From the NCBI GenBank assembly GCA_050950165.1, contig JBMNHC010000001.1, positions 325,724 through 389,723 on the forward strand: 64,000 nt of DNA. The letters run 5' to 3'. The notes beneath the pieces are model-generated. The model did no database searches. It saw only the letters and a list, made by a program, of their open reading frames with translations, and was not told where the DNA came from. This document shows, piece after piece, positions 50,563 to 53,500 of the stretch; position 1 is the stretch's first letter, and the number at the start of each line of letters is the position of its first letter. The position numbers and the translations under genes are program-made. The DNA is from Candidatus Dojkabacteria bacterium (lineage in GTDB: Bacteria; Patescibacteriota; Dojkabacteria; SC72).

Positions 50563-53500
50563 AATGAAGCCAATTAAGGGCATACGGTGGATGCCTTGGC
50601 GCAAAAGACCGATGAAGGACGTGGTAGGCTGCGATAAGCCTCGGGGAGCTGTCAAACAAGCTTTAATCCGGGGATTTCCGAATGGGGTAACCCAGTTAGA
50701 CTCAAATCTAACGACCATACAATGAATTAATAGTTGTATCGGAGGATATGCAGGGAAGTGAAACCTCTCAGTACCTGCGAGAAAAGAGACCAATAGGTGA
50801 TTTCCTGAGTAGTGGCGAGCGAAAAGGGAATAGCCCAAACCAATACTGTGTAAGGAGGATCCAAATCATGATTCGCGTTGCGATGATTGAGGAGGAAAAT
50901 CCGCAGTCTGCCGATCGTGCAGTACTGGTGTAGTAAGAGTTAGTAGATTAGACGGCAGTCTTATCGAGAAGTTACAAAATTTAACTTTAGAAGAACATAT
51001 CTGGAAAGGTAGACCATAGAGAGTGAAAGTCTTGTATTCAAAAAGGTTAAATCTTCTTTCTAATATCTTGAGTACCACGGGACACGTGTAATCCTGTGGG
51101 AATCAGCCAAGACCACTTGGCAAGGCTAAATATCTTTTGCGACCGATAGTGGAGTAGTTCCGTGAGGGAAAGGTGAAAAATACCCCTGTAAGGGGAGTGA
51201 AATAGATCTGAAACCGTGTGCTTACAAACAGTCGTAGCCCCGCTAACTTATAGTTTGAAATTCTTTTTAACAAATACTTAATACTTTTTGTATAAGATAG
51301 GGAATGTACTTTGTTTATGTTCTTCAGTCATTAAACAGGAAAGATAAGCTTTACATAGGAGTTAGTTCTAATCTTTTACGAAGATTAGGTCAACACAATT
51401 CTGTATTTAATACTGGTTATACAAAAAATAACAGATGAAGAATTCTCTATGTAGAAGGATATCTAACAAAAAATATTGCTTATCATCGGGAAAAGAAATT
51501 AAAGTAATATGGAAATGTATGGTATGGAGTTAAAAAGAGAATATTTCGAGCTACAGGTTAGCGGGGTGACGGCGTGCCTATTGAAGAATGACCCGGTGAG
51601 TTAGTTGTGTGCGGCAAGGTTAACCATGTTTATTGGGGAGCCGAAGCGAAAGCGAGTCTGAATAGGGCGTGCCGCTAATCTATAGAGATATCTAAGGGAA
51701 ACTTGTATAACCCTTGGGTTTTCTATAGATTAGCGGGATGAAGTCGCATGCACTAGACCCGAAACCAGGTGATCTAACCATGAGCAGGGTGAAGGAGTGA
51801 GAAATCACTTTGAAGGCCCGAACTCTTTAATGTTACAAAATTATGAGATGACTTGTGGTTAGCGGTAACATGCCAAACGAACCTGGTAATAGCTGGTTCT
51901 CCCCGAAATAGCTTTAGGGCTAGCGTTGTAATTTAATCATTGGGGGTAGAGCACTGATTGGGTCTGGGGCCCGAAAGGGTACCCAATCCAGTTAAACTCC
52001 GAATACCAATGTGAACATTACAGCAGTTAGAACTAGGGAGCTAAGTTCCTACGTTCAAGAGGGAAACAGCCCAGATTGTCAGATAAGGACCCTAAATTAC
52101 ATCTTAGTGGAAAAGGAGGTGGAGTTTCTCAGACAGCTAGGAGGTTGGCTCAGAGGCAGCCATCCTTTAAAAAGTGCGTAAAAGCTTACTAGTCAAGAGA
52201 TTCTGCGCCGAAGATTCAACGGGGCTGAAGATGTATTCCGAAGCTGCAAATTCACCCAGCTAACCTAGAGTATAAATGGTGTAAATTTTGTTAATCCACT
52301 TTTTGTACTATAAGTTAGCTGGATGAATGGTAGGGGAGCGTCCTATACATGATCTACTTAGCAGTAGATACATCGCGATGAAGGTAACCTGAAAAGAGTT
52401 GCTGGAGCGTATAGAAGTGAGAATGCCGGGATGAGTAACGAAAAGCAGGTGAAAACCCTGCTCACCGAATGTCTAAGGTTTCCATGGCTATGGCAGTCAA
52501 CCATGGGTTAGTCGGTCCTAAGATCAGGCCGAAAGGCGTAATCGATGGATAACAGGTTAATATTCCTGTACTACTAATATTTGTGAAGGAGATTGAGAAT
52601 TGAGAAAGCAGGCCCCTCATTGGTTTGGGGTGTAAGTAGTAAATTAGTTTCTTCAGGTAAATCCGGAGAAATATTCTTCGCTTAGTGAAGTGAAAATGAG
52701 CTACGATGCAAAGGTAACCTTCGGGAAGCCGATCTGTTGTATTAATTTTCCAGGAAAAACTTCTAGCGTGTTTACCTTCGGGTAAGCTAAAAAATATTGG
52801 TGACCGTACCGCAAACCGACACAGGTGGACTGGTATGAAAGTACCAAGGTGTACGAGTGATGCGTTGTTAAGGAATTCGGCAAATTGACCCCGTACGTTC
52901 GCAAGAAGGGGGGCCATCCATTATAGATATTTATATTTGTGGTGATGATGGCGGCACAAAATAGGGAAGGACGACTAGTTACCAAAACTACAGGCGCTTG
53001 CAAATTCGTAAGAAGATGTATAAGTGCTGACACCTGCCCAATGCCAGAAGGTTAAGAAAGTTTGTCAATCGTCTGTCAGATGCACTTCGGTGCTCTGATG
53101 GTGAGGAAGCGGACGATCGAAGCCCTGGTCAATGGCGGCTGTAACTATAACGGTCCTAAGGTAGCGTAATACCTTGTCACTTAATTAGTGACTTGCATGA
53201 AAGGTGTAACGATCCTTCCACTGTCTCGACAACGTGCTCGGTGAAATTGAAATGGCTGTGAAGATGCGGCCTACCCATACCAGGACAAAAAGACCCCGTG
53301 GAGCTTTACTGCAACTTTGCATTGGAATAGGACTTTGAATATAGAGAATAGGTGGGAGACTTTGAAGCAGTCTCGTCAGGGATTGTGGAGTCGCAATATG
53401 TAATACCACTTTTTTAATGTTTTATTTCTAACCGCTTCCGTTATCCGGAAGTTGAACAGTGCATGGTAGGCAGTTTGACTGGGGCGGTTGCTTGCTAAAG

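Follow-up and report, generated by a model that had tools for sequence, protein, structure and literature searches.

Intervening sequences (IVSs) at helices 25 and 45 of the 23S ribosomal RNA (rRNA) are known from Salmonella, Yersinia, Leptospira, Coxiella and other bacteria, in which they are excised by RNase III without re-ligation. These classical IVSs are mostly 90-150 nt long and carry no open reading frame (ORF); those that do carry one (Leptospira, Coxiella) encode the four-helix protein 23S_rRNA_IVP/S23p (PF05635) and not a GIY-YIG protein. In the Candidate Phyla Radiation (CPR), 30 GIY-YIG ORFs were reported from rRNA insertions, 15 in the 16S and 15 in the 23S rRNA gene, and none of these insertions is intron-like (Tsurumaki et al. 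2024, PMC11270868). The sites named 23IS2 and 23IS4 in that survey are classical RNase III IVS sites, and the GIY-YIG ORFs were described as sparse and perhaps recent horizontal acquisitions (Tsurumaki et al. 2024, PMC11270868). CPR non-intron rRNA insertions encoding GIY-YIG proteins are also ascribed to Brown et al. 2015, whose work enters here only as it is cited in PMC11270868. The present analysis concerns a GIY-YIG ORF inside an insertion at the tip of helix 25 of a 23S rRNA gene, found in a 64,000-nt stretch of a Candidatus Dojkabacteria genome (contig JBMNHC010000001.1, positions 325,724 to 389,723), hereafter the window.

A GIY-YIG ORF in a non-intron rRNA insertion of a CPR bacterium is an already published kind of element, and the locus shares with the insertions of Tsurumaki and colleagues the CPR host, a 23S insertion without a match to group I or group II introns and an ORF matching PF01541. 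It differs from them in occupying one fixed helix 25 site across a clade saturated at synonymous positions, in being under purifying selection there and in tracking the 23S phylogeny; the window copy differs further in being, very probably, a pseudogene with two stops. This study adds the conservation of the ORF at a fixed site under purifying selection, the overlap of the ORF with the closing stem of the insertion and the decay of the gene through two stops. Overall, our analysis suggests with good confidence that the ORF is a recently inactivated pseudogene of an Slx1/UPF0213-type gene, one that this clade normally carries intact inside its helix 25 IVS. This reading stands on demonstrated anatomy, orthology, selection on the intact copies and relaxed constraint in the window lineage.

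The window (G+C content 35.5%) contains a single rRNA operon, with the 16S rRNA gene at 48582-50180, tRNA-Ile, tRNA-Ala, the 23S rRNA gene at 50563-54135 and the 5S rRNA gene at 54264-54380. The 23S rRNA gene is 3573 nt long against a model of 2925 positions, and the excess of about 650 nt comes from several insertions. The cmscan alignment placed the insertion under study at the helix 25 tip, following position 583 of the Rfam model, and alignment with E. coli rrlH using MAFFT placed it at window 51241-51555, after E. coli 23S position 542; both alignments confirm the helix 25 insertion of about 320 nt proposed in the initial annotation. A search of 51230-51575 found no Rfam family, introns included, at the gathering threshold or at E<=1. 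The features of the insertion are as follows.

50563-54135, plus strand: 23S rRNA gene (Rfam LSU_rRNA_bacteria, 2388 bits, model positions 1-2925).
51241-51562, plus strand: helix 25 IVS of non-intron type, about 315-320 nt (cmscan alignment and MAFFT alignment against E. coli rrlH).
51233-51271, plus strand: 5' arm of the basal stem, with GCTAACTTATAG at 51242-51253 (inverted repeats I2 and I13, rod of the minimum free energy (MFE) fold, covariation).
51304-51435, plus strand: ORF segment 1, codons 1-44, with beta1, beta2 and alpha1 and the GIY, YIG, RR and HN motifs (structure elements from the AlphaFold2 (AF2) model of the orthologue P0001).
51436-51438, plus strand: first premature stop, TGA, at a family-invariant tryptophan position that is TGG in 9/9 intact homologues.
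51439-51504, plus strand: ORF segment 2, codons 46-67, with beta3 and alpha2 and the catalytic-type Glu63 (aligned to Slx1 E82).
51505-51507, plus strand: second premature stop, TAA, at a codon that is CAA or CAG (Gln) or CAC (His) in relatives.
51508-51561, plus strand: ORF segment 3, codons 69-85 (YGNVWYGVKKRIFRATG, alpha3), with the ancestral TAG at 51559-51561 (tblastn of the restored product).
51529-51571, plus strand: 3' arm of the basal stem (GGTTAGCGGGG), which also encodes the last approximately 11 codons (GVKKRIFRATG) and the TAG (inverted repeats, fold and translation).

Translation from ATG 51304 gives MYFVYVLQSL...YTKNNR, a TGA, RILYVEGY...REKKLK and a TAA, which had first been described as a GIY-YIG frame of 67 codons broken by a single TGA. 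The start codon and the in-frame TGA were borne out, and the length was not: past the TAA the unchanged frame continues into segment 3 and ends at the TAG inside the 3' stem arm. The full ORF is 85 codons long and is broken twice in frame, by TGA at codon 45 and by TAA at codon 68; the TAA earlier taken as the end of the gene is itself premature. Homologues run on beyond '...REK.LK' as 'QYGNVW..V.KRI....G', and the restored 85-amino-acid (aa) product matches 51304-51558 at 97.6% identity in tblastn. Each stop in the window is one GC to AT transition away from the codon of the relatives (TGG to TGA and CAA to TAA). No second, intact GIY-YIG copy that might compensate was found by tblastn within the window.

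The window belongs to Patescibacteria (CPR), and the closest genome is a metagenome-assembled genome of Candidatus Dojkabacteria (locus L001). The nine nearest database proteins have 64-79% identity and 84-94 aa. Comparison of their contigs with the window 23S rRNA gene by blastn revealed that seven of the nine (P0001-4 and P0007-9), together with L001, occupy precisely the 23S position of the window ORF, each as an intact copy; related lineages thus supply the intact 84-94 aa gene at the orthologous insertion. The helix 25 site is occupied in L001, L043-46 and L048-57. An ORF was present at helix 25 in every related 23S rRNA gene retrieved, a set gathered through the ORF itself, in which empty sites are not detectable.

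Pairwise Nei-Gojobori comparisons gave proportions of non-synonymous differences (pN) of 0.10-0.37 against proportions of synonymous differences (pS) of 0.53-0.90, and the ratio of the corresponding rates (dN/dS) was about 0.06-0.3 wherever dS could be estimated. With pN well under pS and dN/dS this low, the ORF is a genuine, long-kept protein-coding gene. Distances between ORFs were correlated with those of 272 nt of adjacent upstream 23S sequence (Spearman rho 0.60), with the same groupings, and this correlation therefore fits vertical co-inheritance and not recent spread. Within the clade of the window, L050, L052 and L053, eight amino-acid-changing differences (six missense and two nonsense) and one synonymous difference are unique to the window, against 10 non-synonymous and 18 synonymous unique changes in the three intact relatives together (Fisher p = 0.008; p = 0.03 without the two stops, 6:1 vs 10:18). 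This non-synonymous excess over the relatives indicates relaxed constraint in the window lineage. The ORF is accordingly read as a pseudogene because it has two different stops, its orthologues are intact at the same site, it shows a non-synonymous excess and no other gene of the window contains a sense TGA.

Several observations weigh against inactivation and have to be set beside this evidence. The window copy retains 29 of the 30 columns that are invariant in intact copies and has no indels, so that outside the stops it resembles a functional member; if the gene has been inactivated, these same two features place the event very recently. The stops stand without independent confirmation because no second copy of the window allele was retrieved: the exact 44-aa product is absent from the record, and in a metagenome scan AATAACAGATGRAGAATTCTC matched only two unrelated sequences, by chance. 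TGA serves as the stop in just 1-2 of about 47 window genes and in 0/~13 flanking genes of the relatives L041, L043, L047, L048 and L001, which leaves room for weak UGA termination. Finally, for every lineage we infer that the IVS is excised and the ORF translated.

These observations bear first on whether the stops are real. Since rRNA operons are difficult to assemble from metagenomes, the two stops could have arisen in sequencing, assembly or consensus calling, or could represent strain variants in the minority, and the organism could in fact possess an intact gene. This is unlikely in our judgment, as two independent errors 69 nt apart, both of them creating stops, would hardly be expected in high-coverage rRNA sequence, and the missense excess that persists when the stops are left out is what real relaxed constraint would produce.

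The second alternative is that UGA means tryptophan, is read through or is weakly terminated in this organism, so that the gene would yield a 67-aa protein up to the TAA, or the full-length protein if the TAA were also bypassed. The TGA does fall exactly on the family-invariant tryptophan, and TGA stops are strongly depleted: the stops of the 35 long ORFs of the window are TAA in 19, TAG in 15 and TGA in one (binomial P = 0.004 at an expected 20%). For a genome of 35% G+C, the share of TAG is unusually high. The scarcity of TGA stops may reflect weak or lost function of release factor 2 (RF2) in the clade; a release-factor motif search of the window proteins found no release-factor gene. Against this alternative, a TAA follows 23 codons on, at a conserved glutamine, and to our knowledge TAA is a sense codon in no bacterial code. 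Recoding or readthrough is therefore no viable rescue, since the TAA truncates the protein ahead of the conserved C-terminal helix even if UGA is leaky, and a protein of 67 aa would be without the conserved G-N-x-W...R helix alpha3. The change from TGG to TGA is also the commonest path to a nonsense codon.

Analysis of codon usage points in the same direction. ORFs predicted with translation table 11 tile the window, and the main genes are neither joined nor lengthened when TGA is read as sense. The 35 long ORFs, with 15,884 codons in all, contain 148 TGG and no sense TGA, and TGA occurs off-frame 1051 times; the genes at 39160-39609 and 6419-6670 appear to terminate at TGA, and none of the nine tRNAs of the window has a UCA anticodon. 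That the other genes use the standard code, as the initial annotation held, is thus upheld over approximately 16,000 codons. UGA recoding in CPR is confined to the Gracilibacteria/Absconditabacteria lineage (PMC13293708), and the literature searched yielded nothing relevant on UGA usage in Dojkabacteria. UGA reassignment was rejected after comparison of ORFs with TGA as stop and as sense, stop usage and a tRNA scan, which leaves the scarcity of TGA stops unexplained; as a whole, this second alternative is somewhat less probable than the first. From the initial choice between pseudogene, readthrough and recoded ORF, the pseudogene is supported by the two stops, the intact orthologues and the missense excess, and the other two options are improbable.

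The encoded protein was identified by its match to the GIY-YIG family of Pfam (PF01541), obtained with the 67-aa product and the TGA read as tryptophan. At 47.5 bits (E 2.2e-12; cut-off 22.6) the match is well above chance; it crosses the TGA and covers profile positions 1-69 of 78. The N-terminal piece of 44 aa alone matches PF01541 with E 3e-8. Residues Y5, Y17-I18-G19, R26-R27, H31-N32 and E63 are invariant across the clade. The AF2 model of the orthologue P0001 (pLDDT 90) has a beta-beta-alpha-beta-alpha-alpha fold, with beta1 at 2-9, beta2 at 15-20, alpha1 at 23-30, beta3 at 44-52, alpha2 at 55-66 and alpha3 at 70-83. In the window copy the stops at codons 45 and 68 leave no uninterrupted frame for the whole catalytic domain; the TGA stands at the start of beta3, and a 44-aa product would be without beta3, the Glu63 helix and alpha3.

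The solved structures closest to the P0001 model are UPF0213 BH0048 and the nuclease domain of Slx1 (TM about 0.62-0.67), and the catalytic domain of I-TevI (1ln0) is a weaker Foldseek match. The family profile likewise matches Slx1 best (E 1e-7, Slx1 E82 aligned with Glu63), with UPF0213 EF2693 and BH0048 weaker. The encoded protein is thus a single-domain GIY-YIG protein of the Slx1/UPF0213 type and not an I-TevI-like homing enzyme, and we infer nuclease activity for its intact form. It shares with Slx1 and UPF0213 (YhbQ, BH0048, EF2693) the best profile and structure matches and the pattern Y..Y.G..R..H.N...W...E, and bacterial members of that group are likewise about 85-100 aa long. The differences are that Slx1 has a C-terminal RING/PHD domain of its own and the partner Slx4, that no NCBIfam model matches the ORF protein or its clade, and that bacterial UPF0213 proteins have no assigned function. 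Most of the top 150 among 7461 family representatives (E<=1e-3) are 70-130 aa long.

Enzymes of the I-TevI, I-BmoI and Seg type share the catalytic fold with the ORF and also reside in or beside stable-RNA or essential genes; T4 SegB lies within a tRNA gene cluster. Those enzymes differ in being approximately 200-270 aa long, with a linker and a DNA-binding domain that give site specificity, and in residing in self-splicing introns or free-standing in phages; the orthologues here, at 84-94 aa, are the catalytic domain alone, have no DNA-binding domain and are in neither setting. The term 'homing-type endonuclease' used at first was therefore loosely right as to the GIY-YIG fold, and it fails on the missing DNA-binding domain, the missing intron family and the agreement with the 23S phylogeny. 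It is very improbable that a mobile intron-like element has recently invaded the 23S rRNA gene and that the ORF is its active, classical homing endonuclease: the GIY-YIG fold is a recognised homing-endonuclease fold, the catalytic domain of I-TevI is a weak structural match and distant relatives have insertion signatures in tRNA genes, but there is no group I or group II intron signal and no DNA-binding domain beside the catalytic domain of about 85 aa, all relatives found (through the ORF) share the site, the ORF co-diverges with the 23S and the window copy is broken.

Consistent with an IVS, the insert and its flanks fold as a near-continuous rod (MFE -102 kcal/mol, z -8.2 against shuffled sequences). 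Copies borne by IVSs have z values of -4.9 to -10.5, against -1.4 and -0.05 for two free-standing paralogues. Across seven lineages the basal stem has 25 consensus pairs, six of them with compensatory changes, and it extends to approximately 33 bp in the MFE fold of the window. In the window subclade the 3' arm is also coding sequence, as the ORF has its last approximately 11 codons and its TAG there; the L043/L048 lineage has a non-coding 3' arm, and its ORF stops about 35 nt ahead of it. In location and in its long covarying stem the insertion matches the classical helix 25 IVS that RNase III excises: it lies at the helix 25 tip (E. coli ~542), its closing stem of at least 25 bp shows covariation and a second member lies at helix 45. 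By this likeness the stem is probably an RNase III-type excision site. The insertion departs from the classical IVSs in its length and in its GIY-YIG ORF.

The pseudogene reading can be put as a course of events. The helix 25 tip carries a non-intron IVS of about 320 nt closed by a conserved stem of 25-33 bp, and RNase III-type cleavage at this stem would free the insert from the pre-23S rRNA. The freed RNA would be the only plausible message for the ORF, which would presumably be translated from it. The insert encodes an 85-codon putative GIY-YIG nuclease, co-inherited intact with the 23S rRNA gene under purifying selection in Dojkabacteria-like lineages. Two GC to AT transitions (Trp45 TGG to TGA and Gln68 CAA to TAA) would then have left a 44-aa fragment as the sole possible product of the window copy, so that the nuclease gene would be lost while the surrounding RNA hairpin stays intact.

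Analysis of the rRNA operon revealed further hairpins closed by the 12-mer GCTAACTTATAG and its partner CTACAGGTTAGC at several 16S and 23S sites, and the ORF-less hairpins share their terminal sequences with the ORF-bearing IVS. The members found in the window are as follows.

About 48650-48690: GCTAAC hairpin at h6 of the 16S rRNA.
50030-50100: GCTAAC hairpin at the tip of h44 of the 16S rRNA.
Helix 25 (H25) of the 23S rRNA: GCTAAC stem of the ORF-bearing IVS.
51670-51738: GCTAAC hairpin at 23S position 651, with the variant GCTAATCTATAG and a perfect stem.
52250-52328: GCTAAC hairpin at helix 45 (H45) of the 23S rRNA.
6174-6185 (region 6172-6192): exact copy of GCTAACTTATAG that forms a stem with CCAACCTATAG at 6290-6300 (to 6302) and brackets a tRNA-Ser gene.

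The h44, H25 and H45 hairpins of the relative L043 are closed by the same GCTAAC motif. The 69-nt hairpin at position 651 occurs in the window only and is missing in all relatives compared, and the H45 hairpin occurs in the window and in L043; L048, which is close to L043, has a short unrelated hairpin at H45 instead. Because the 651 and H45 hairpins vary between lineages, hairpins of this family come and go in the DNA itself, a variation that fits either mobility of DNA or repeated selection of a preferred processing stem. The H45 hairpin is palindromic (alignment scores of 64.5 forward and 64.0 reverse), so that its orientation is not distinguishable.

Other insertions were seen in the same genes. 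Domain I of the 23S rRNA contains a further approximately 130 nt of insertions at window 50837-50989 (E. coli ~270-293), and smaller insertions lie at E. coli ~1207, 1550 and 1854 of the 23S and at ~821 of the 16S rRNA; the GCTAAC motif is absent from all of these. At L048:5751-6410 (corresponding to window 53154/53155) an extra 23S insertion of about 770 nt carries a LAGLIDADG_1 ORF, and the window is without it. This insertion is a typical CPR rRNA intron, polymorphic among lineages.

Free-standing relatives of the ORF were also found. P0005 and P0006 (L041:3937-4423 and L047:3200-3700, 64-67% identity) are situated in the interval from a LysM/M23 peptidase gene to leuS, and two tRNA genes, tRNA-Ala(CGC) and tRNA-Ala(GGC), follow 9 nt downstream. 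In L041 the ORF and the first tRNA are flanked by degenerate IVS-type arms CCCAGCAGGCTTATAG ... CTCTGGGTTAGCTGGG. The arrangement in L041 and L047 suggests exchange between rRNA-IVS and tRNA contexts.

More distant members (36-49% identity) come from Patescibacteria, Dehalococcoidia, Planctomycetota, Verrucomicrobiota, Bacteroidota, Omnitrophota and Gammaproteobacteria (loci L002-L040, such as L016:3902-4306, L006:3926-4340, L007:274-762, L019:3942-4304 and L026:1282-1713). At approximately 22 of 32 distant loci, from at least seven phyla, no more than 450 nt and usually no more than 150 nt separate the ORF from a tRNA or transfer-messenger RNA (tmRNA) gene of the same strand. Exact direct repeats of 14-51 nt, tRNA-like in sequence, bracket the ORF in at least 13 of 34 loci; at 10 loci they overlap an annotated tRNA and at three more they resemble a tRNA fragment. 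L016 has the order complete tRNA-Asn, ORF and 3' half of tRNA-Asn, with the stop codon of the ORF inside the duplicated anticodon loop, and L006 has tRNA-Gly, ORF, 3' part of tRNA-Gly and the start of a second ORF copy. The mirror order of 5' fragment, ORF and complete tRNA was found in L002, L003, L007 and L021. In L022 (Leeuwenhoekiella blandensis MED217, 3784-4598) a direct repeat of 161 nt surrounds the ORF and reaches into tRNA-Arg; this ORF is also flanked by copies of the 26-nt palindrome AGACCTGCCTGCCGGCAGGCAGGTTT. The ORF-enclosing stem is not general, and the distant free-standing copies have no inverted repeats beyond chance.

On sequence grounds the pattern looks like that of cassettes inserted in tRNA genes with a duplicate that restores the gene. 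It supports the view that at the level of the family the nuclease gene is part of something mobile, namely cassettes of stable-RNA genes and not intron homing. No description of an association of GIY-YIG genes with tRNA genes was found in the literature searched, and the adjacency to tRNA and tmRNA genes and the variation in hairpin presence may be new.

Two further observations concern the stable-RNA genes of the window. A tRNA-Ile with anticodon UAU, which is uncommon in bacteria, lies at 38053-38127, and such a tRNA also occurs beside GIY-YIG genes in the Patescibacteria L008, L013 and L019. The tmRNA gene at 18353-18763 has a long predicted tag of 26 aa, VENKLNAFASKLKAAFTAPLYAYNFA, which ends in FA rather than the usual LAA.

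A wider reading, which we hold to be doubtful, would unite these elements. Single-domain GIY-YIG genes would be minimal mobile cassettes for stable-RNA genes, whose structure-specific, Slx1-like nuclease, devoid of a DNA-binding domain, would cut extruded DNA hairpins or cruciforms at tRNA genes and rRNA helix tips, and the host RNA would be preserved either by an excisable stem or by a duplicate of a tRNA half. The ORF-less GCTAAC hairpins would be non-autonomous derivatives with the same 12-15-nt termini, and the window copy would have just lost its nuclease. Such a reading is allowed by the tRNA adjacency, the tRNA-like repeats, the polymorphism of the hairpins and the termini shared by hairpins and IVS. 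The earlier proposal that the nuclease accounts for the GCTAAC family is compatible with the variable hairpins and with the insertion signatures of distant relatives in tRNA genes, and no link between the nuclease and hairpin mobility was found. L. blandensis, a cultured member of the Bacteroidota, is a tractable host for the idea of a tRNA-associated cassette.

The question that first drew attention to the locus has a mundane answer, as it very probably involves neither recoding nor programmed readthrough and concerns a nuclease gene soon after its inactivation. The annotation is corrected to 85 codons with two stops, the C-terminus and ancestral stop of the ORF being written into the 3' arm of the presumed excision stem. 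An old, fixed and selected ORF runs against the published impression of sparse and recent acquisitions, and prompts one to ask what maintains a nuclease gene inside a single-copy rRNA gene. If the association with stable RNA holds, these genes would form a class of very small, experimentally tractable elements with stable-RNA genes as their targets.

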